This document shows, in pieces, positions 10,082-32,379 of a stretch of 33,027 nucleotides of DNA; the first letter of the stretch is position 1, and every line of letters starts with the position of its first letter. Made by a program: the position numbers and the translations under genes. Where the stretch lies: contig JAPLVJ010000041.1 of assembly GCA_026397155.1 (NCBI GenBank), positions 1-33,027 of the forward strand, given 5' to 3'. Origin of the DNA: Candidatus Berkelbacteria bacterium (GTDB lineage Bacteria > Patescibacteriota > UBA1384 > JAPLVJ01). The notes under the pieces are model-generated. The model saw only the letters and a list, made by a program, of their open reading frames with translations. It was not told the DNA's origin and did not search any database.

Positions 10082-10711
10082 ATGATACAGATTGCAGTTA
10101 TGGTCTCGGGGCATGGCCGAGGGAGCAATCTTCAGGCGATCATTGATGCCTGCAAAGAGAATCGGATTAACGGTGGGGTCATCGTGGTCATCGGCGTGAA
10201 GGATGACGCGCCTGCGATGGAACGCGCCCGTAGCCAGGGCATTTCGGCGATCGAAGTGCGCCCCAAGGCATTCGACTCCGACGAGGCGTACGGCCAAGCT
10301 GTGCTCGATGTCCTTGCCGAGCACAAGGCCGATCTCGTGTGCCTCGCCGGGTACATGCGCATCCTCCCTTCCAACATCGTGAGTGCGTACCGGTGGCGCA
10401 TCATGAACATCCATCCGGCGCTGATACCGCTCTTCTGCGGGAAGGGGATGTTCGGCGAACACGTCCATCAGGCGGCGCTCGATTACGGGGTGAAGGTCTC
10501 GGGCTGCACGGTCCATTTCGTGGACGAGGAATACGACACCGGCCCCATCATCATCCAGAAAACCGTGCCTGTCGAGGAGGGCGACACAGCCGAGACCCTG
10601 GCCGCCCGCGTGCTCATTCAAGAGCACAAGGCGTACCCCGAGGCGATCCAGCTCTTCTCCCAGGGCCGCTTATCGGTCGAGGGTCGCGTGGTTCACATTC
10701 ACCCAAAGTAG
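10082..10711 (+). CDS. purN: phosphoribosylglycinamide formyltransferase (GAR transformylase)
   Basis: 209 aa with canonical PurN motifs: VMVSGHGRGSNLQAIID, NIHPALIP and GCTVHFVDEEYDTGPIIIQ. A GGAGG SD lies 7 nt upstream of the ATG. The G+C content is far above the rest of the window. Antisense and alternate-frame ORFs over it are GC-driven artefacts. Confidence 0.9.
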   Translation: MIQIAVMVSGHGRGSNLQAIIDACKENRINGGVIVVIGVKDDAPAMERARSQGISAIEVRPKAFDSDEAYGQAVLDVLAEHKADLVCLAGYMRILPSNIVSAYRWRIMNIHPALIPLFCGKGMFGEHVHQAALDYGVKVSGCTVHFVDEEYDTGPIIIQKTVPVEEGDTAETLAARVLIQEHKAYPEAIQLFSQGRLSVEGRVVHIHPK

Positions 10712-16295: not shown

Positions 16296-16574
16296 GTGCC
16301 AAGAACCAAGTCAGCTTTAAAAGCTCTTCACGTTTCAGAGAAGAAAAGAAAGCATAATCTTGAGATTAAAAAAAAGTTTAAATCAGCCATTAAATCTTTT
16401 AGAAAACAAAAGAAAGGTGATTTGAAAACTTTAAGTTCTATACTTGATAAAGCTGCTGCAAAAAATGTTATTCATAAAAACAAAGCAGCTAGATTAAAAT
16501 CAAGATTATCTAAAACCGTTGAGATCAAAAAAGTCACAAAGACCAAAGTTAAATCTAAAAATAAAAAGAAATGA
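16296..16574 (+). CDS. rpsT: 30S ribosomal protein S20 (lysine-rich C-terminal tail)
   Basis: 92 aa with a GTG start. The S20-like N-terminus is SALKALHVSEKKRKHN and ...NKAARLKSRLSK. The stop overlaps the lepB start (ATGA). Confidence 0.88.
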   Translation: MPRTKSALKALHVSEKKRKHNLEIKKKFKSAIKSFRKQKKGDLKTLSSILDKAAAKNVIHKNKAARLKSRLSKTVEIKKVTKTKVKSKNKKK

Positions 16575-17110
16575 TAAAATCTTCCTTAATTACCTGGGGC
16601 TATGAATTAGGAAAAGCAGCTTTGATTTTAGCTTTGCTTGGTCTTTTTTTGCACTATTTTATTGCCACTATTTTTGTTGTTGATGGTGCTTCTATGGCAC
16701 CTAATTTTAAAGATAATGAAGTAGTTATGGTTAATAAAATTTCCTACTTTATTAAAAACCCAAAGCGCGGCGATGCCGTGGTTCTAAAATTCCCTGGCCG
16801 CGAACAAGAAAAATATATCAAAAGAATCATTGGCCTGCCAGACGAAACAATCAAAATAGAAAGCGGCAAAGTTTATATTAATGGCCAAAAATTAATAGAA
16901 GAGGATTATTTGTCCTCTCATCTAACCACAGAACCAGATATGGAAAAAACGCTCTCAGAAAATGAATATTTTATCATGGGCGATAACCGATCAAACTCGA
17001 ACGATTCGCGTATTTGGGGTACTTGCCCAAAAGAAAATTTAATTGGTAAAGCTGTTTTTGTTCTTTATCCATTAAAAGAATGGAATTTTGTTCCAAAAGT
17101 ATCTTATTGA
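16571..17110 (+). CDS. lepB: signal peptidase I
   Basis: 179 aa. An N-terminal TM helix is followed by the catalytic Ser box GASMAPNF, the Lys box KRIIGLPDETI, and GDNRSNSNDSR. Confidence 0.92.
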   Translation: MIKSSLITWGYELGKAALILALLGLFLHYFIATIFVVDGASMAPNFKDNEVVMVNKISYFIKNPKRGDAVVLKFPGREQEKYIKRIIGLPDETIKIESGKVYINGQKLIEEDYLSSHLTTEPDMEKTLSENEYFIMGDNRSNSNDSRIWGTCPKENLIGKAVFVLYPLKEWNFVPKVSY

Positions 17111-17607
17111 TTGTTTAAGGGTAATATTTTATCTGCTGTTGCTAGAGTTTTTCTTTTTTCCTTACCCCACCAAGTCGGGCGTTCAACTTCAGAAATCGCT
17201 ACTCGCGCTATAATCAAATTTTTATCGCCTTTTTTTATTTCCACAGGAATTGTAATTGATCCATTTGTTCCTGCTTTTAAATCACCTAAATTAATCAGTG
17301 TTGATGGTGATATTTCTCTGGAAGTATCACCTAAAACACCCACAATTCGGCTTTTTTCCATGTCTCTTTTTAAAGAATAACTAATAGTGTAGGTAACAAT
17401 TTGCCCCACTGCGGCTGACTCTGAATCACTGTTAATAGTAAAAGTAACGCTATCGTTCTCAACAGAATTTGGCTGAACTTTACTTTCCTCGCTAATTTGC
17501 AATGTATCTGCCGAAGTTCTTTGAAGTTCGCCGAACTGCCACAATAATCCCAAAACTAAAAATAAAAAGGTAATCAGTATAATTAATCCGGTTGTCTTAA
17601 AACGCAT
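17104..17607 (-). CDS. hypothetical membrane-anchored beta-sandwich protein
   Basis: 167 aa. An N-terminal TM or signal anchor (GLIILITFLFLVLGLLW) is followed by a DUF11-like stretch (GQIVTYTISYSL). It is convergent with lepB, with a 7-nt overlap. Confidence 0.6.
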   Translation of the reverse strand: MRFKTTGLIILITFLFLVLGLLWQFGELQRTSADTLQISEESKVQPNSVENDSVTFTINSDSESAAVGQIVTYTISYSLKRDMEKSRIVGVLGDTSREISPSTLINLGDLKAGTNGSITIPVEIKKGDKNLIIARVAISEVERPTWWGKEKRKTLATADKILPLNNQ

Positions 17608-23669: not shown

Positions 23670-24719
23670 CTATCCTTCCCTTCTCCTTACCCTTTCCGCC
23701 AGTTTAAACAAACGATACCAAGAAGATTTATATACTAAATCATAAGCGCCCGGAAAGTCAACCTGGTTTTTGCCAAATTTCATCTTAAATTCTCTTAAAC
23801 CCGACCAGTGATGCGATTCTTCTGAAGGTGCGATTGCTCCAAAATCATAAATTTTAAAACCTTCTTGTTTTGATTTTTTGATCGCCTCCCAGTGAGCTAG
23901 ATACACGGCCATAGTGTTACGCGATTCTGATGAACTTGCACCATAAAGATAAGTTGCATATTCTCCAAAATAAGTAATCAAAAGAGCAACTAATGGCTTT
24001 TGTCCTAAATAGGCAATAAATAATTTTGCTTGGTTGTTCTTAAAAAATACTTCAAAGAATTTTTTAAAGTAAGATCTTGGTCTCTCTGAAAATCTATCTC
24101 TTCCTGCAGTTTCTAAAAACAAGGCATAAAAGACATCTAACATTTTCATGTCGTTCGTCCCTTGGATATTAACACCCCTTTTCTCAGCGATTCTAATGTT
24201 ATATCTACCTTTATGTTTCATTTCTTTTAAGATTTCTTCTTCGCTTTTTTTTAAGTCAATCCAAAGACGATGATCTGGTTGTACATTTTCAAATGATTTT
24301 TTAAAGTCTAGTTTTTCTAAAATCCCTTGTAATTTGGGATCAAAGGGTTCTATGCGCAAAAATATGGCATTTTCTTCTTTAGCAATCTCTTGCATTTTTG
24401 CAAGTAACAATTTTGTCCCCGATACTTGATTCTTGATACTTGATACCCGCCCAAATACCGGTCCTTCGCCTATATAGATAAAGCTTTTTGAAAAGGGAAG
24501 CCTTCTTACTAATATATTCGCAGCCAGAATCCACTGACTTTTGTCAATTATGGCTAAGCGAATCGGCTTCCATAAAAATTCTTTCTTAAAATCACCCCAT
24601 TCCCAGGATTGCAAAAGCGTCCCATTATTTTGCTTAACAAATTGATTCCATTTTTCTTTTTGATTTTCAGCAATAATAGTGGCTTCCATTTTTTCTCTTT
24701 CTAAGCTACATTGTATCAT
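23670..24719 (-). CDS. FemAB-family peptidoglycan bridge-forming aminoacyltransferase (FemX-like)
   Basis: 349 aa. The overall pattern of a tandem GNAT-like fold fits the FemX/FemAB family (LQSWEWGDFK..., YLYGASS...). The internal ATG at 24689 (MEATII...) has a better purine-rich upstream region and may be the true start. Confidence 0.75.
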   Translation of the reverse strand: MIQCSLEREKMEATIIAENQKEKWNQFVKQNNGTLLQSWEWGDFKKEFLWKPIRLAIIDKSQWILAANILVRRLPFSKSFIYIGEGPVFGRVSSIKNQVSGTKLLLAKMQEIAKEENAIFLRIEPFDPKLQGILEKLDFKKSFENVQPDHRLWIDLKKSEEEILKEMKHKGRYNIRIAEKRGVNIQGTNDMKMLDVFYALFLETAGRDRFSERPRSYFKKFFEVFFKNNQAKLFIAYLGQKPLVALLITYFGEYATYLYGASSSESRNTMAVYLAHWEAIKKSKQEGFKIYDFGAIAPSEESHHWSGLREFKMKFGKNQVDFPGAYDLVYKSSWYRLFKLAERVRRREG

Positions 24720-24731
24720 GAGGCATAAATT

Positions 24732-25943
24732 ATGAAAATTTTGGGGATTGAAACAAGTTGCGACGAAACTGCCGCGGCAATCGTTGAGGTAAAAAATGAT
24801 TGCACGCAGGCGAGTCCGAGAATTAAAATTCTTTCAAATATTGTTTCGTCTCAAATTAAAATCCATCGAAAATACGGCGGAGTGTTTCCAGAACTTGCTT
24901 CAAGGGCACATTTGGAAAATATTATACCAGTTTTAAAAGAAAGTCTAGAGGAATCAAAAACAAAATTAGATGCAATCGATTTAATCGCTGTAACTGTTGG
25001 CCCAGGATTAATTGGTTCACTTTTGGTTGGCGTAAATACGGCTAAAACCATAGCCTATACATTAGAAAAACCAATAATTGGGGTTAATCATTTGGAAGGA
25101 CACGTGTATTCCGCCCCTGGCGGAGAGCGCCAAAAAAACAAAACGTTTATGGCGAGCTTGGAAGCTCAAAGTGGGTCGCAAGCGCATTGGAAGGCCGAAA
25201 GCCGCACCAATAAAGCGCACATCTTTGAGCGACAAGCGAGCCAAGATTTTCAGTTTCCCGCTCTCGTCCTGATAGTCTCTGGCGGACATACCTCCTTGGT
25301 TCTGATGCACAATCACGGAGATTTTAAAATAATCGGCCAAACAAGAGATGATGCAGCTGGCGAGGCATTTGATAAAGTAGCAGCGCTTCTCGGGTTACCA
25401 TACCCCGGAGGACCAGCAATAGAGAGAATTGTCCAAAAAGCTGGTCTAAAATCTCACTTCTCAAGCCTGAAATATAAGCTCCCGCGACCAATGATTGATT
25501 CAAAAGATTTTGATTTTTCATTTTCTGGCTTAAAAACAGCAGTGCTTTATCTAGTAAAACAATTGCCAGACGACCAGATACAAAAAGTTAGACAACAAAT
25601 TGCAGCTGAATTTCAGCAAGCAGTTATTGATGTTCTGATCCAAAAAACTTTGCAAGCCGCAAAAAAATATGACACTAAAACAATAATACTTTGCGGCGGC
25701 GTTTCAGCAAACTCTTTACTGCGCAAAGAATTTGAATTAAAAATTAACTTTGCCCGAAAGGGCAGTGCTGCGAAGGCAGATTTTTATAAATTAAAAATTG
25801 ACTTTTTGGTTCCGCCAAAAAATCTCTGTACTGACAACGCAGCTATGATTGCCATCGCTGGATGTTTTAAGTCCTTGGAAAAGAAGCCAGATAAATGCTA
25901 CAATATCTATGCTGACTCAAATGCAAAATTACTCAGCTGGTAA
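24732..25943 (+). CDS. tsaD: tRNA N6-adenosine threonylcarbamoyltransferase TsaD, carrying a 31-aa in-frame element insertion
   Basis: 403 aa with GIETSCDETAAAIV, HLEGH, SGGHT and CTDNAAMIA. It is about 60 aa longer than typical TsaD, because of GC-rich in-frame patches. Confidence 0.92.
   Translation: MKILGIETSCDETAAAIVEVKNDCTQASPRIKILSNIVSSQIKIHRKYGGVFPELASRAHLENIIPVLKESLEESKTKLDAIDLIAVTVGPGLIGSLLVGVNTAKTIAYTLEKPIIGVNHLEGHVYSAPGGERQKNKTFMASLEAQSGSQAHWKAESRTNKAHIFERQASQDFQFPALVLIVSGGHTSLVLMHNHGDFKIIGQTRDDAAGEAFDKVAALLGLPYPGGPAIERIVQKAGLKSHFSSLKYKLPRPMIDSKDFDFSFSGLKTAVLYLVKQLPDDQIQKVRQQIAAEFQQAVIDVLIQKTLQAAKKYDTKTIILCGGVSANSLLRKEFELKINFARKGSAAKADFYKLKIDFLVPPKNLCTDNAAMIAIAGCFKSLEKKPDKCYNIYADSNAKLLSW
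25150..25242 (+). repeat. 93-nt GC-rich palindromic element, copy 1 (in frame inside tsaD)
   Basis: 90/93 identical to 28083-28175. G+C is 53/93. End-to-end hairpin potential: GGC/GCC, GCTTG/CAAGC, GCTCAAAG/CTTTGAGC, GCGC/GCGC, ATTGG/CCAAT and GGC/GCC around CGAAA. Confidence 0.9.
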
Positions 25944-25948
25944 AGATT

Positions 25949-28504
25949 ATGAAACTATCAAAAACATACGATCCTTCTAAGGTAGAGGGTAAAATTTATC
26001 GCTTTTGGGAAAAGAAAAAATGCTTTAAACCCGAACTAAAACCCAAAGCAAAACCTTACTGCATTATTATGCCGCCGCCAAATGCCAATGCCCCGATGCA
26101 TTTAGGCCACGCTGTTTTTGTTACTTTGGAAGATTTAATGATTCGATATAAACGCATGAAAGGCATGGCTGCCTTATGGCTACCTGGTGCAGATCATGCT
26201 GGATTTGAAACCCAGGTTGTTTTTGAAAAAAAACTGGAAAAACAAGGCAGAAACCGCTTTGAAATCCCGCGTGAAATACTTTTTAGAGAAATGTGGGATT
26301 TTACTCAAGAAAATAAAAAAACAACAGAAAACCAACTTAAAAAACTCGGCGCTAGCTGCGACTGGGATAGGGAAAAATTTACACTTGATCCAGATATTAT
26401 TAAAATTGTCTACCGCACTTTCAAAAAGCTGTATGATGATGGGCTAATTTATAGGCAATATAGACCAGTAAACTGGTGTCCAAAACACAAAACCGCCCTT
26501 TCTGATCTAGAAACAAAATATATTGAAAAAAATGATCCTCTTTATTACATCAAATATGGACCCTTGACCCTAGCTACTGTTAGACCAGAAACTAAATTTG
26601 GTGATACAGCCGTAGCTGTCAATCCAAAAGACAAACGTTATCAAAAATATATTAAAAAAGAAATTAAGGCAAAAGGAATTTTGGGACCACTAAAATTTAA
26701 AGTCATTGCTGATGAAGCTGTTGATCCAAAGTTTGGCACTGGTGTTGTCAAAGTAACCCCAGCTCATGATCCAATTGACTTTGAAATTTGGCAAAGACAC
26801 GAAAAAGAAATCCCTGGTCCTTGTATTGTGATTAATGAAAGTGGTCGGCTGACAAAAGAAACAGGGAAATTTGCTGGACTAAAAGTACTAGAGGCGCGCG
26901 AAAAAGTGGTTGAAGAAATGAAGAAAATTGGCATTTTAGAAAAAATAGATTCAAGTTACAAACACACAATCGCCACCTGCTACAAATGCGGAAACACGGT
27001 TGAACCACTACCAAAAGAGCAGTGGTTTGTTGCTGTTAATAAAAAAGGTAAATCTGGTAAAGCGCTTGCTCCGGACGCCTTAAAAGCAGTCAAAGAGAAA
27101 AAGGTTCAATTTGTGACCAAGCGATTTGAAAAAATATTTAACCACTGGATGCAAAATATTCGCGACTGGAATATTTCACGCCAAATTGTTTGGGGAATCA
27201 GAATACCAGTTTGGTACTGCCAAAATACAAAGCCATTTGAAGATAAAAAAATGGGCTTTGCTGGCAATATTGTTCCCCAGGTATTTAAAAATAAAACAAA
27301 AACCTATCGCCTACGGGATCACTGCTTTAAGGTTAGCGATAAAGTTGCCTTTGAAAATAGTCAAAAAGGAGAAATTTTCGGCTACGGAACCATCATTGAA
27401 ATTAAAAAAACAACAGTCGAAAAAGTTGACCTCAAAGATCCAAAACATGGAACAACATACAAAAAATTGGATGAACTAATTTTAGCTTTCAAGAAACATC
27501 ATCCTGACAAAAAAGTAACTCCTAAAACATTGGTTTGGATTTATATCTATAAATTTGAGGAAAAGAAAAAGTGCAGTCCCTTGATTACACTAGGTCAAAA
27601 GCCAGCTCAATGTCCGATCTGTGGCGACAAAAATTTATCCCAAGACCCAGATGTCTTTGATACTTGGTTTTCTTCTGGGCAGTGGCCGTTTGCAACCTTA
27701 CAAACAACAAAACCAGGCGATTTTGAAAAATTTTATCCAACAGAAATAATGGAAACTGGCTGGGATATTCTTTTCTTTTGGGTGGCTAGAATGATCATGC
27801 TTGGACTTTATGAAACTGGGAAAGTGCCTTTCAAAAAGGTTTATTTACATGGCTTGGTCCGCGACAAAGATCGCCAAAAAATGAGTAAATCAAAAGGAAA
27901 TGTGATCGATCCCTTGGGCGTTGCCGAACAATACGGAACTGATGCTATTAGAATGGCTCTAGTTTTTGGAACAAACGCTGGAAACGATATTATTATTTCG
28001 GAAGAAAAAATCCGCGGCATGAGAAATTTCGCTAACAAAGTTTGGAATGTGGCAAGATTTGTTTTAATGCAAACTGAAATTGTGGCAAGCTCGGAAGCTC
28101 AAAGTGGGTCGCAAGCGCATTGGAAGGCCGAAGGCCGCACCAATAAAGCGCACATCTTTGAGCGACAAGCGAGCCCAAAAACCATCGCCGACCGAAAAAT
28201 CTTGCAAAAACTCGATAGTCTTATTGCTAAAATTGATAAAGATTTGAACAATTTCCGTTTTGGTCAGGCCGCCAGTGATCTTTACGATTTTATCTGGCAC
28301 GATTTTGCCGATAAGTATATTGAAGAATCAAAAAATCAACTCCAAGACGAAAAAACCAAACAAAACACCCAAGAAACCCTACTCTACACACTTAAAACAA
28401 GTCTCAAATTGCTTCACCCGTTTATGCCCTACGTAACCGAAGAAATTTGGGGAAGGTTACCCGGCTACAAAAAACCTCTAATTGTTTCCGACTGGCCCAA
28501 ATGA
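25949..28504 (+). CDS. valS: valine--tRNA ligase with an internal ASCH-like insertion, a 31-aa element insertion, and no C-terminal coiled-coil domain
   Basis: 851 aa. The HIGH-type motif (PNANAPMHLGHA) and KMSKS (QKMSKSKGN) are present. Editing-domain motifs TKFGDTAVAVNP and GTGVVKVTPAHDP are present. The protein ends right after ...EEIWGRLP...WPK. Confidence 0.93.
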   Translation: MKLSKTYDPSKVEGKIYRFWEKKKCFKPELKPKAKPYCIIMPPPNANAPMHLGHAVFVTLEDLMIRYKRMKGMAALWLPGADHAGFETQVVFEKKLEKQGRNRFEIPREILFREMWDFTQENKKTTENQLKKLGASCDWDREKFTLDPDIIKIVYRTFKKLYDDGLIYRQYRPVNWCPKHKTALSDLETKYIEKNDPLYYIKYGPLTLATVRPETKFGDTAVAVNPKDKRYQKYIKKEIKAKGILGPLKFKVIADEAVDPKFGTGVVKVTPAHDPIDFEIWQRHEKEIPGPCIVINESGRLTKETGKFAGLKVLEAREKVVEEMKKIGILEKIDSSYKHTIATCYKCGNTVEPLPKEQWFVAVNKKGKSGKALAPDALKAVKEKKVQFVTKRFEKIFNHWMQNIRDWNISRQIVWGIRIPVWYCQNTKPFEDKKMGFAGNIVPQVFKNKTKTYRLRDHCFKVSDKVAFENSQKGEIFGYGTIIEIKKTTVEKVDLKDPKHGTTYKKLDELILAFKKHHPDKKVTPKTLVWIYIYKFEEKKKCSPLITLGQKPAQCPICGDKNLSQDPDVFDTWFSSGQWPFATLQTTKPGDFEKFYPTEIMETGWDILFFWVARMIMLGLYETGKVPFKKVYLHGLVRDKDRQKMSKSKGNVIDPLGVAEQYGTDAIRMALVFGTNAGNDIIISEEKIRGMRNFANKVWNVARFVLMQTEIVASSEAQSGSQAHWKAEGRTNKAHIFERQASPKTIADRKILQKLDSLIAKIDKDLNNFRFGQAASDLYDFIWHDFADKYIEESKNQLQDEKTKQNTQETLLYTLKTSLKLLHPFMPYVTEEIWGRLPGYKKPLIVSDWPK
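28083..28175 (+). repeat. 93-nt GC-rich palindromic element, copy 2 (in frame inside valS)
   Basis: It has the same orientation and codon phase as copy 1. The three differences are at element positions 5, 10 and 50. The apex change A to G converts GGC-CGAAA-GCC into GGCC-GAA-GGCC. Confidence 0.9.
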
Positions 28505-29520: not shown

Positions 29521-32379
29521 ATGAAAAAGTTATCCAAAATAATCATTTTTACTATTCTAGCCGTCTTTTTAGCTAGCTTTTTTGGTTTTTCAAATACTAA
29601 AGCAGATCTCCCGGGACCTGCGGGCGACCCAGACGCTCGCCCTTCTGATTGCCACACTCTAATACCCCTTGTCACTCAAACAGCAAACGAGAGTACTGTT
29701 CTTAGATGCGCTACATTTTCACCAGCTGGATATACTGTCAATCTTTGGTATGGGGATAAAGACAAAACTACAGGAAATGAAGCTTTTAATTTTGCGGGCA
29801 CTGCCGATTGGGGTGTCGCAGGCACAGGAGACATAGGAGACTATGTATACAGAAGCACAAAAAGACCTGAATTTTATATTGCAGTAGCACGCAAAGACCA
29901 ATTGGGTGTAGTACAAGCAATATATGTTACTCATCATTACAAAGTTGGTGAGAACTTAAGATGGGATGAAAATTCTGCAGACGATAGAATGTATTCTGTC
30001 TACAAAGTTGGAGATGACACACCCAATTTGCCTGATTATAGAAATGCTTTTGATAATGGCAAGCGCTTTGTTTGGAGAATAGTCGTTAATGGTAAAATCA
30101 CTTTAAACAACGAGATAGTAAAGGGAGCAATTGTAAAATTAAAGGTTGACAACTCCGCGGGTCCTGCATTAGACCAAGTCACAAGTAACGATGAGGGAGT
30201 ATTTGAATTTTCATATGTAGGAACAAACGAAGACATATGGATTAATCAGGGAACCGTCAGTAAAATATTCCTTTATGTACAAACGGAGAAAGATAATAAA
30301 TACCAGATTTATAAAGAAATAGCCTTTCCCCAAGGATTCGTACCGCACGGTGACCAGGATACAAAAATGGCAAATCTAGGAACTATTAATTTAACTACAG
30401 AGAACAAAGTCGATAATTTTACCGAGGAAGCCGGAGGAGAACAATCAACCACAGAAGAAGCAATCGGCGCTGATTCCGAATCCCAATGCGAAAAAGAAGC
30501 GTGCAGAGGTACCGGTGGGTGGCTAAGCATCAAAGGCGTATTCTGTAAATTAGGCTGTGCTATTGTTGGTTTAATCGGGGACTTTGTTAACTTTGCCATG
30601 AAACTACTGAATGAAGCCTCTGGTTTAACTCAAAACTTTTTCGGAGTTGAGCATGCCTACGCAAAACCCCTTTCAGAACAATTAAAGGCCCAACAAGTGG
30701 TCAACGGCTGGAAATTTGCTTTAACTTTTACTGATATTCTGATTGTTTTGGCATTAATGGTTCTTGCTTTTGCAAATATTTTAAAGATAAGCATTGACAC
30801 TTATGCCATCAAAAAGTCACTTTTTCCTTTAATTATCGGGGTCATTTTGGCAAATTTAAGTTTATTAATCTGCCAAGTAATTGTTGATTTTTCTTCTTTG
30901 CTTTCTGATTATTTTATCAAGATTGGCGGGAGCTGGTCGGCTACTGGTGGTGGACCAATGGCTGGATATGGTCCAGGGAATCTTGGGGATAAAATAGCCA
31001 GCTTGATGGGCATCAGCCCTGCTGCAACTGGTGGAGTAGCAATTGCAACAATTCTTGGTGCAATAATAACGGCGGCAATTGTTCCTCAGGCCGGTTGTAT
31101 TGTTGCCATTGCTGCAGTTGTTTTTTTGGCTTTGCCGGGTCTTTTAATTTTGGCCCTTGCCTTTTTGATGTATGCGCGGGTTTATGTTGTCTGGATATTA
31201 ACAATCATGGCACCGCTTGCTTTTATTTGTTTGGGCATCCCACCATTACAGCAATATTTTAAGCAATGGTGGTCGTGGTTTACTAAATGGGTCTTTTTAG
31301 CGCCGATTGCCTATTTCTTTATTAGTTTGGCGGCTGTTTTGGGTAGCGTAACTTGGGCCAGTAGCGACAATAAACTCTCTATATTTGGCGGCTGGCTTTT
31401 GGGTATGGTTGTTTTGGGAATGGCAATTATGATTCCTTTCAAAATGGGCGGACCGATCATGGCTGCATGGGCTGCCTGGGGCAAGAAAGGCGGAAAATTG
31501 ATTGGCGGTTTGGCTGACATTGGAATCTCAAAAGTAACCAAGGGGTGGTCTCCTTATGGAGTTTACACCGGAGTCAAGCAGGCTTATGAAGCTGGATGGA
31601 AACGACATACAACAGAAGTAACTGGTAAGGGACGAGCACTGGGAGAAACAATGACTGCACTACCCAGAACTGGTTGGCATAGAGCTAGACAAAAACTTAT
31701 GGGACTAAAAACTTCAGGAAGTCTTAGGGGTGTAGCCAAAGAACAAATGAAAAGTAGAGAATCTATAAATGCAGGCCAAGAAGTAGACAGAATTTTACAA
31801 GAAACACAAATACCATACGGCGGCACGGAGTTAAATAATTTTCTACAAAGCGCTATACAAAACAATGATATTGGTATGGCCGCACCAGCTATGGCTAGGG
31901 CTGCCGAAGAAGGAACATTGACTGACGAAAACTTTAGAGGTTTTGCTGCTACATTTAAAGGTGATTTAAAAGCTCAAGCAACGATAAATAAAGTAGAAAA
32001 TTTATCAGTCCAGTCAGGAAATGGCCCCTCTATTTCTCCGGTCAAAATCGAAAATGGACAACCAGAACCACTATCGGATGATGAAGTTAAAGATAAAAAT
32101 AGACTTCTACAAAAATCAATGTTTGGCAAAAATACTGCTCAACAACAACAGCTTATCAATAATATGATTGGCCGTATTAATTCAGATATAACCACTAGAA
32201 GCCCTGGGAAAGATATTACCAGTGCTAATTTTCTTCAGGACCTTACCCCGGGCGAAAAACAAATTATGCGATTTTTGCATCAGATTTATCAACATGAAGG
32301 AAATAAATCCGTCCTGCTTAAAAGTGTTTTAAACAGGATCCAACCCCACATGGACCGTCTAAATCAACCAACTCCTTGA
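29521..32379 (+). CDS. large secreted/polytopic membrane protein, possible TrbL/VirB6-like channel component
   Basis: 952 aa. After a signal peptide (IIFTILAVFLASFFGFSNTKA) comes an extracytoplasmic region of about 300 aa. That region includes a CarboxypepD_reg-like beta-sandwich stretch (GAIVKLKVDNSAGPALDQVTSNDEGVFEFSY). An acidic linker and a Cys-rich patch follow. Then come about 7 TM helices, including ARVYVVWILTIMAPLAFICLGIP. The soluble C-terminal region is about 330 aa. The family assignment is architecture-based only. Confidence 0.8.
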   Translation: MKKLSKIIIFTILAVFLASFFGFSNTKADLPGPAGDPDARPSDCHTLIPLVTQTANESTVLRCATFSPAGYTVNLWYGDKDKTTGNEAFNFAGTADWGVAGTGDIGDYVYRSTKRPEFYIAVARKDQLGVVQAIYVTHHYKVGENLRWDENSADDRMYSVYKVGDDTPNLPDYRNAFDNGKRFVWRIVVNGKITLNNEIVKGAIVKLKVDNSAGPALDQVTSNDEGVFEFSYVGTNEDIWINQGTVSKIFLYVQTEKDNKYQIYKEIAFPQGFVPHGDQDTKMANLGTINLTTENKVDNFTEEAGGEQSTTEEAIGADSESQCEKEACRGTGGWLSIKGVFCKLGCAIVGLIGDFVNFAMKLLNEASGLTQNFFGVEHAYAKPLSEQLKAQQVVNGWKFALTFTDILIVLALMVLAFANILKISIDTYAIKKSLFPLIIGVILANLSLLICQVIVDFSSLLSDYFIKIGGSWSATGGGPMAGYGPGNLGDKIASLMGISPAATGGVAIATILGAIITAAIVPQAGCIVAIAAVVFLALPGLLILALAFLMYARVYVVWILTIMAPLAFICLGIPPLQQYFKQWWSWFTKWVFLAPIAYFFISLAAVLGSVTWASSDNKLSIFGGWLLGMVVLGMAIMIPFKMGGPIMAAWAAWGKKGGKLIGGLADIGISKVTKGWSPYGVYTGVKQAYEAGWKRHTTEVTGKGRALGETMTALPRTGWHRARQKLMGLKTSGSLRGVAKEQMKSRESINAGQEVDRILQETQIPYGGTELNNFLQSAIQNNDIGMAAPAMARAAEEGTLTDENFRGFAATFKGDLKAQATINKVENLSVQSGNGPSISPVKIENGQPEPLSDDEVKDKNRLLQKSMFGKNTAQQQQLINNMIGRINSDITTRSPGKDITSANFLQDLTPGEKQIMRFLHQIYQHEGNKSVLLKSVLNRIQPHMDRLNQPTP

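Follow-up and report, generated by a model that had tools for sequence, protein, structure and literature searches.

Why should two housekeeping genes on one contig carry the same hairpin in the same reading frame? The question is raised by JAPLVJ010000041.1, a contig of Candidatus Berkelbacteria bacterium whose 33,027 nt are the whole stretch of DNA that we analyzed (the window). Here tsaD and valS, the latter encoding valyl-tRNA synthetase (ValRS), each hold a copy of one 96-nt segment. We consider it likely that this segment belongs to a family of dispersed repeats that form hairpins and are native to Patescibacteria (the candidate phyla radiation, CPR), and that it was recently duplicated in this genome. 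The two host genes and the two copies are as follows.

24732..25943, + strand: tsaD, host of copy 1, intact, encoding 403 aa (match to 6NAK, E 7e-78).
25147..25242, + strand: copy 1 of the repeat, in frame in tsaD (residues ~139-170), 2933 nt upstream of copy 2 and in the same orientation and phase.
25949..28504, + strand: valS, host of copy 2, intact, encoding an 851-aa ValRS with HIGH-type and KMSKS motifs.
28080..28175, + strand: copy 2 of the repeat, 96 nt or 32 codons, ValRS residues 712-743, VASSEAQSGSQAHWKAEGRTNKAHIFERQASP.

The segments at 25147-25242 and 28080-28175 form one direct-repeat family of two copies that are identical at 92 of 96 positions. A preliminary description of this DNA had treated them as one 93-nt element with three substitutions, in the same phase, and sequence comparison agrees: inside the 93-nt limits (25150-25242 and 28083-28175) the copies differ at 25154 (G/A), 25159 (T/C), and 25203 (A/G), and a fourth difference lies outside these limits at 25149 (A/G). 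Both copies start at codon position 2, as (25147-24732) mod 3 and (28080-25949) mod 3 both equal 1, and they are translated as ASLEAQSGSQAHWKAESRTNKAHIFERQAS and ASSEAQSGSQAHWKAEGRTNKAHIFERQAS, with A-S-(L/S)-EAQSGSQAHWKAE-(S/G)-RTNKAHIFERQAS as their near-common peptide. One of the four differences is synonymous and three are non-synonymous; with respect to the fold, one breaks a pair, one falls in a G.A pair, one is in the apical loop, and one lies outside. A 27-mer from the core of the repeat, searched with up to three mismatches, matched only the two copies in the window (0 matches expected in 100 shuffles). The repeat has a G+C content of ~0.54, compared with 0.32 to 0.40 in its flanks, and on either strand a long, imperfect hairpin is predicted, with folding energies of -38 to -41 kcal/mol and z scores of -2.6 to -3.9. 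Copy 2 is divided into the following parts.

28084-28175, + strand: the hairpin proper, GGCAAGC...GCGAGCC.
28101..28118, + strand: left conserved block, AAAGTGGGTCGCAAGCGC, in which AAAG ends helix P2, TGGGTCGCAA is the 10-nt side of an asymmetric internal loop, and GCGC belongs to helix P3.
28119..28144, + strand: variable apical part, with P4 (ATTGG/CCAAT), an internal AA/GCA, and P5 (GGCC-GAA-GGCC).
28145..28159, + strand: right conserved block, AAAGCGCACATCTTT, in which GCGC belongs to P3, ACAT is the 4-nt side of the internal loop, and CTTT belongs to P2.

We then asked whether ValRS proteins generally have the insert. The valS product matches PF00133 and PF08264 as well as the Thermus thermophilus ValRS 1GAX (E 1e-38); its nearest relative among 5.8 billion proteins is 62% identical, and the named relatives are from Patescibacteria/Parcubacteria. 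In an alignment of 120 ValRS sequences, the residues that connect the ..NKxWNxxRFVLM helix to the (A/T)xxD(K/R)xI helix are variable in number and sequence. The preliminary description had placed the insert in a variable linker here, between the helix after KMSKS (..NVARFVLMQTE) and ADRKIL, a placement that the alignment bears out: the window's insert is absent from the linker of all 119 homologues (119/119). It had also named an insert universal in ValRS as an observation that would speak against its reading, and with 0 of 119 homologues carrying it, this is not what we found. Nor does any of the ValRS homologues contain any of the peptide motifs that the element can encode in six frames. Against 1GAX, the sequence through ..VLMQTE pairs with residues 504-594 and pairing resumes at 596, so that 26 window residues stand opposite 1. 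In the AlphaFold2 model of ValRS (52 homologues; mean predicted local distance difference test score, pLDDT, ~90), residues 712-736, which lie inside the element-encoded residues 712-743, are the sole long exception: they score below 50 and are modeled as coil between two long helices. In TsaD, residues 127-168 stand opposite only 4 residues of Thermotoga maritima TsaD (6NAK). As judged from these alignments, the 32-residue insert in valS adds to a variable and tolerant linker between the catalytic body and the anticodon-binding helices.

Both host proteins have other extra stretches. ValRS has a second insertion of ~135 aa in its catalytic core (window ~27227-27630, residues ~427-560), which is common to Patescibacteria ValRS homologues of 830 to 880 aa and absent from those of 700 to 770 aa. 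AlphaFold2 predicts it as a folded, beta-rich domain with pLDDT mostly 80 to 95; one homologue (P0098) has a Pfam ASCH match (PF04266), and the window's own segment has no Pfam match. Compared with solved TsaD structures, the window's TsaD has extra residues immediately before the element (SAPGGERQKNKTF, window 25107-25146, residues 127-139) and another extra stretch near its C terminus (..FARKGSAAKADFYKLKIDF.., window ~25760-25830, residues ~345-365).

Is the element confined to this contig? Our first seed, GCTCAAAGTGGGTCGCAA, was used in an 18-mer scan of one genome per species and gave 21 chance 18-mers and only two true relatives, L002 and L019, both in one Patescibacteria metagenome-assembled genome (MAG) from Hainich groundwater. 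It recovered this single MAG because the seed took in variable bases of P2. L002 is intergenic, full length, and 91% identical to the window element; L019 is intergenic and has extra nested hairpins. Apart from these loci, the family members were gathered from metagenomes with a second seed, the exact 18-mer AAAGTGGGTCGCAAGCGC, which gave 60 loci, ~45 of them with the shared architecture when viewed in register. Loci without the right block (L026/32/40/53/54/67, L035, L041-43, L056/63/64, L059, L073, and L075) were regarded as chance matches and excluded. A covariance model, R1, built from 14 family members found 48 copies over all collected loci, scoring 30 to 118 bits. Over the whole window with filters off, R1 found only the two copies (copy 1, 110.5 bits; copy 2, 105.1 bits, E 4.5e-25), both on the + strand and hence sense to their host genes; the next-best match, at 14.7 bits, was the reverse strand of copy 1, and the reverse strands of the two copies score 11 to 15 bits.

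About 40 loci beyond the window carry the element in independent assemblies, apparently all from Patescibacteria; the GC-rich members also belong there, as indicated by the named relatives of the adjacent GAPDH. There are two copies per contig in L037, L080, and Ga0172374_1000128. Copies on the same contig can be near-identical, as they are in the window, in L037, and in the apical parts of L080, or can differ considerably, as in L055/L062, and the stems of the element, which diverge between genomes, are identical between the two window copies. The distribution is patchy, as the neighborhoods of gap in three other Patescibacteria (66 kb in total) contained 0 copies. No element was matched in viral contigs with two seeds, and Rfam 15 gave no match on the element in the window at E up to 10 and none in 10 diverse family copies at E up to 5.

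These loci bear on the suggestion that the repeat is an assembly artefact, that is, a collapsed or chimeric repeat. In its favor, the contig is a single metagenomic record without a close relative, and the preliminary description had considered that the two copies might be the only ones and the result of misassembly. However, besides the ~40 further loci, the copies lie in continuous, full-length, correctly ordered open reading frames (ORFs) whose flanks align to homologues on both sides, they differ at 4 positions, and in-frame inserts of this kind occur in independent assemblies of other samples, such as the two that gave L030/L033. We therefore give an artefact a negligible probability.

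The family members also vary in size. L078:954-1011 is a minimal form that lacks everything between the halves of the two GCGC helices, and in L029, L081, and L083 the apical parts are 25 to 30 nt longer. L019:1155-1293 (MAG H43-bin058_1, upstream of pyrG) has two nested GC-rich mini-hairpins, one of which splits the otherwise invariant right block as GCGCACA, CCCGCCTTGCCGATGAGGCAGG, TCTTT. The nested part resembles either an expansion segment of the element or another, smaller insertion element that lies within it.

What does the family have in common? In order, each member begins with one strand of an outer stem that varies, continues with the 18-mer, an apical hairpin that also varies, and the block A(A/G)AGCGCACATCTTT, and closes with the complement of the outer stem. 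In the outer helix, GCGAGCUUG/CAAGCGAGC, Watson-Crick pairs surround a tandem G.A; in some lineages the ends of the element are fully complementary, GCGAGTTT/AAACTCGC, with GAG/CUC in place of the tandem G.A. The second helix ends in AAAG/CUUU and is followed by the asymmetric internal loop UGGGUCGCAA/ACAU, the GCGC/GCGC helix, and the variable apical hairpin. The internal loop is invariant; its left side, UGGGUCGCAA, is part of the search seed, and its right side, ACAU, is outside it. The right block A(A/G)AGCGCACATCTTT, which was not in any search pattern, is nearly invariant in 39 sequences, and 29 columns are invariant overall. By eye, none of the K-turn, T-loop, signal recognition particle-like, and terminator readings of the conserved loop fits, and no U-tract follows the hairpin.

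The helices covary. In the 48-sequence alignment, 93.2% of cells are in standard pairs and 19 of the 26 pairs have changes on both sides, values that 0 of 500 shuffles matched; when the 3' partners were slid by 1 to 3 columns, pairing fell to only 26 to 53% of cells. All 5 modeled P4 pairs have changed on both sides across the family, e.g., ATTGG/CCAAT in the window versus ATAGG/CCTAT in L002. There is moderate evidence that one particular strand, the one that carries the 18-mer, is the folded one. Across the family, G.U occurs 36 times versus 8 for A.C, and the 18-mer strand gives the more stable RNA in 27 copies versus 16, by a mean of 1.4 kcal/mol (P = 0.009). The statistics on strand given here and those on orientation given below take no account of phylogenetic relatedness.

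Most of the copies are intergenic, and ~7 of the 48 are in genes. Besides those in the window, five further loci have the element inside long ORFs that continue on both sides of it, with hosts confirmed by Pfam.

L079: MiaB-like radical-SAM enzyme, sense, in the window's frame (ASLEIKSGSQAH..).
L074: YchF GTPase, sense, in the second frame (..GSQKWVASA..KRTSF..).
L033/L030 (two samples): Elp3-like radical-SAM protein, sense, in the second frame.
L082: Mur ligase, antisense (..KRCALY..ACDPLF..).
L038: MnmA, antisense (..KDVRF..RLRPT..).

The Pfam domains are interrupted at the element, with two stretches each for Mur_ligase_C and for the MnmA HUP domain, and in the MnmA of L038, 52 residues stand opposite ~9 of the solved enzyme. 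In L074, which is probably from the Hainich genome of L002 and L019 (all are at coverage 7), the element lies in a poorly conserved helical domain of YchF, so the comparison there is ambiguous. The MnmA of L038 has further unaligned stretches relative to solved MnmA at residues ~174-190 and ~300-350, which suggests that insert-rich enzymes are common in these genomes. Element length modulo 3 was considered as a marker of copies in genes; the helix-to-helix core length does not separate these from intergenic copies, because the insert boundaries reach a few nucleotides past the outer helix.

The conserved blocks are stop-free in all six frames, and in most copies one sense frame is closed by the conserved UA(A/G) that follows P4. 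One reverse-strand frame of the element is also free of stops, which gives the two antisense ORFs below their common ARLSLKDVRFIGAAFGLPMRLRPTLSF. The preliminary description had explained these spurious ORFs by an open antisense frame, and both do contain that peptide.

28064..28300, - strand: spurious antisense ORF, 78 aa, contains ARLSLKDVRFIGAAFGLPMRLRPTLSF.
25062-25340, - strand: its twin, 92 aa, contains ARLSLKDVRFIGAAFGLPMRLRPTLSF.

Is it the peptide or the hairpin that selection keeps? The shared segment could be a protein-level module under selection that was copied between proteins, or part of an ancestral ValRS linker. ValRS and TsaD do have it in the same frame with a near-identical peptide, and L079 uses that frame too. 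However, the segment is absent from all ValRS homologues examined, the other copies in genes are read in the second sense frame and in two antisense frames as unrelated peptides, and most copies are intergenic, many with stops in the window's frame. AlphaFold2 predicts no structure for the peptide, and 3 of the 4 differences between the window copies are non-synonymous. It has no relatives among proteins either: a tandem of the two insert peptides, searched against 5.8 billion proteins, gave 5 word candidates with none at E<=1, and the 32-aa peptide, searched against 1.84 billion representatives, gave one spurious match, a DUF285-like repeat protein. Hence, the peptide does not represent a protein family, and such searches are unable to take a census of copies in genes. 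We judge a protein-level module highly improbable. The preliminary description had proposed to ask whether substitutions between the two copies favor the hairpin or the peptide. With only 4 differences, the window copies have no power to answer this; at the level of the family, the answer is clearly the hairpin. That copies in genes occur in three frames and both orientations, with unrelated peptides, means that selection keeps the hairpin and not the peptide. In the reading that we favor, selection acts on the fold of the strand with AAAGUGGGUCGCAAGCGC and not on what it encodes.

The same copies bear on whether the insert is removed after transcription or translation, in the manner of an intron or intein, to leave a mature ValRS without it. 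A compact, stable hairpin with conserved unpaired nucleotides recalls ribozymes and splice substrates, and the linker left behind would be short but possible. However, 93 to 96 nt is far below the size of a group I or II intron, no Rfam ribozyme or intron matched at E up to 10, and the 32-aa peptide is without intein blocks (~130 aa or more). Moreover, copies lie in genes in both orientations (antisense in L082 and L038), which an RNA-level mechanism could not tolerate, and no out-of-frame, gene-splitting copy was seen. Splicing is very unlikely because of this small size, the lack of an Rfam match, the two orientations in genes, and the lack of a gene-splitting copy.

We next considered the copies between genes. 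Of ~34 intergenic copies that could be oriented, 24 follow an opposite-strand gene, 2 to 20 nt past its stop codon, and are 20 to 110 nt from the start of the next gene; the remaining 10 are sense to their neighbors. The ORFs that flank same-strand copies are complete and different genes, not halves of a split gene. Apart from A/T richness, the flanks of 44 copies have no target-site duplication and no common target. Several pairs of copies share a site. L002:4244-4354 and L028:1433-1542 lie in a common spacer between a G5/RlpA-like gene and rsmA (ksgA), the flanking proteins being 42% and 54% identical; both copies are antisense to both flanking genes and differ by compensatory changes in helices P2 and P5. 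L050 and L069 share a site between genes for a glycosyltransferase and a membrane protein (flanks 27 to 38% and 46% identical), and L044 and L077 share one upstream of gap (51% identical). For other shared-site pairs, the flanking proteins are 37 to 73% identical.

Retention of this kind raises the possibility that the family serves the host first of all, as a structured RNA that acts in cis on mRNAs or is made from the + strand by a small RNA gene. Such an RNA would spread rarely and make valS and tsaD dual-coding, and its invariant internal loop would be the binding site of a conserved protein or a tertiary motif. Conserved loop sequences between covarying helices, the strand asymmetry of the fold, and the orthologous sites retained with compensatory changes (L002/L028, L050/L069, and L044/L077) speak for such an RNA, as do the orientation bias (24 of ~34 intergenic copies antisense to neighbors) and the sense orientation of both window copies to their host genes. 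However, the element occurs in both orientations relative to genes, intergenic as well as in-gene, it has no common gene class, it is patchy (0 copies in the 66 kb of three other Patescibacteria), and near-identical copies occur within one genome. We regard a primarily host-functional RNA as unlikely, and it overlaps with the dispersed repeat that we favor. Somewhat less unlikely, in our view, although still tentative, is the broader proposal that the element represents a class of strand-specific structured nucleic acid new to Patescibacteria, either a functional RNA module or a single-stranded DNA (ssDNA) substrate of a mobilization system. If it were a functional RNA module, the invariant UGGGUCGCAA/ACAU loop would define a protein-binding or catalytic fold. 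Under either alternative, the valS and tsaD copies would be dual-coding in that the same 96 nt would specify both a conserved RNA or ssDNA structure and a translated enzyme loop.

How would a dispersed repeat come to occupy valS and tsaD? The behavior of the family, by analogy, fits that of enterobacterial repetitive intergenic consensus (ERIC) and repetitive extragenic palindromic (REP) sequences between genes and that of Rickettsia palindromic elements (RPEs) inside genes. Most copies lie in short intergenic spacers beside gene ends. A minority have landed in housekeeping genes, where only those whose length and frame keep the ORF open would persist, at loops with room for additional residues. 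In valS and tsaD, the copies persist because their length (32 codons, including the shared TTRT before the helix), their phase, and their stop-free frame spare the ORFs. Transposition, or gene conversion between the adjacent genes tsaD and valS, would have duplicated the window variant; the copying appears recent because the stems are identical and only four differences separate the copies. The ribosome would then read through the insert and produce a 32-residue hydrophilic, unstructured loop in ValRS. The fold itself may be kept for the element's own propagation or copying machinery, or for a cis role on RNA, such as that of a REP/ERIC-like stabilizer or processing site. The preliminary description had likewise argued for recent mobility or gene conversion combined with selection against ORF disruption, which fits the identical stems in the window and the five other in-frame hosts.

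Several observations weigh against this reading, or at least against its simplest form. No transposase was found in the 33-kb window (20 ORFs scanned with Pfam) or among recurrent neighbors, and there was no target-site duplication, conserved target, or copy in a viral contig. The lack of a target-site duplication, a transposase in the window, and a viral copy leaves the distribution of copies as the case for mobility; from this we infer that the element is mobile now or was formerly, with copies arising by transposition or gene conversion. We also infer that the insert is translated rather than removed. The left block is identical in all members, and as it was used as the search pattern, its invariance is partly ascertainment. 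Finally, the same intergenic site and orientation are kept, with compensatory changes in place, across genomes so diverged that the flanking proteins are only 37 to 54% identical, which points to long-term purifying selection on individual copies beyond the need of a purely selfish repeat. The element is thus more than a young selfish insert: it is a deeply conserved, covarying, mostly intergenic, and sometimes site-retained family. Two other candidate explanations for features of the repeat were rejected. The AGCGAGC at both ends is not a target-site duplication, as the ends pair as GCGAGC/GCGAGC with the tandem G.A, and some lineages have GAG/CUC. The copies are not the template and variable repeats of a diversity-generating retroelement, as their differences are not adenine-specific.

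Elsewhere in the window, there is a strand switch at 24719-24732, where the divergent starts of a femAB-like gene and tsaD are 12 nt apart. Credible or family-matched ORFs of at least 100 aa are on the - strand to its left and on the + strand to its right, except that genes for a formyltransferase (10082-10711) and a signal peptidase (16571-17110), both left of 24719, are on the + strand. The ORFs at 29521-32379 (952 aa), 1929-2822 (297 aa), 1462-1968 (168 aa), and 17104-17607 (167 aa) have no Pfam match at E<=0.001.

Which known system does the family resemble? A literature search of incomplete coverage gave no relevant report of the element's conserved blocks or of MITE-, REP-, or RPE-like elements in CPR (MITE, miniature inverted-repeat transposable element), and the family is apparently undescribed. 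Inteins and self-splicing introns differ from it, as the element has 32 aa or 96 nt, no Rfam intron match, and both orientations in genes. Palindromic amphipathic repeat coding elements (PARCELs) are palindromic coding repeats readable on both strands (PMC2996958). PARCELs are tandem in surface proteins and selected as peptides, whereas our element is single-copy in enzymes and selected for its fold.

MITEs, such as Correia elements and Nezha, are small non-coding inverted-repeat elements that are scattered over many loci, have no transposase of their own, and are sometimes found in in-frame fusions (PMC10969869). Our element has terminal inverted repeats as well, in which GCGAGCUUG/CAAGCGAGC pair with a tandem G.A or GCGAGTTT/AAACTCGC are fully complementary. 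However, it has no target-site duplication (44 copies) and no autonomous parent recognized among the window ORFs or recurrent neighbors, and it is one whole hairpin, not a core between two terminal inverted repeats, whose most conserved parts are internal unpaired loops, not termini.

The attC sites of integrons are folded single-strand hairpins of 57 to 141 nt with covarying stems and a few conserved unpaired bases; they are strand-specific and lie 3' of ORFs. The R''/L''-L'/R' boxes (RYYYAAC...GTTRRRY) are absent from the consensus of our element, however, and its neighbors are core housekeeping genes, not cassettes, with no integrase nearby.

ERIC (or intergenic repeat unit, IRU) and REP (or bacterial interspersed mosaic element, BIME) sequences are imperfect palindromes of low to moderate copy number in transcribed intergenic spacers near gene ends, and different species keep ERIC copies at common sites, where compensatory changes have occurred. 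No sequence similarity to our element would be expected. The Patescibacteria copies are like ERIC in lying near gene ends and in keeping shared sites with compensatory changes. ERIC and REP are essentially extragenic, and REPs are 20 to 40 nt long and linked to REP-associated tyrosine (RAYT) transposases. In contrast, residence in frame in essential genes is a feature of the Patescibacteria element and not a hallmark of ERIC or REP. It has no GTAG-type terminal motif of the kind found in REP and REPIN (REP-derived hairpin) sequences, and its arms are not inverted copies of each other (10-nt versus 4-nt loop).

RPEs are palindromic repeats of ~100 to 150 bp in a small-genome bacterium that lie in frame in many unrelated housekeeping genes, with the ORF kept and the peptide at tolerated positions, and each RPE family has been described as encoding a conserved peptide (PMC10969869). 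Like these, our element is a hairpin of 90 to 96 nt at several loci (two in the 33-kb window and two per contig in L037, L080, and Ga0172374_1000128), and it is found in frame in valS, tsaD, and genes for MiaB-like, YchF, Elp3-like, Mur-ligase, and MnmA proteins, with the ORFs preserved. The host phylum is different, however, and as the comparison is by description, the element resembles RPEs in behavior only and is not to be called a member. The Patescibacteria family further differs in that it occurs in several frames and both orientations, is mostly intergenic, and combines helices that covary strongly across deep lineages with an asymmetric internal loop that is invariant.

Thus, the kind is already known, namely, interspersed palindromic repeats readable in frame, and the invariant loop, deep covariation, and site retention are atypical of it. 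In Patescibacteria, whose non-coding biology is very little known, the family is thereby a concrete candidate for a structured RNA or ssDNA element that is new. It accounts for antisense ORFs that are spurious and for odd "extra loops" in the CPR proteins of current annotations, and it offers a marker for strain-level gain and loss. In-frame colonization of essential genes by palindromic repeats has been best documented in Rickettsia, and a second, unrelated lineage with reduced genomes now joins it. This suggests that such colonization is to be expected in general wherever hairpins disperse through genomes that have hardly any intergenic space.

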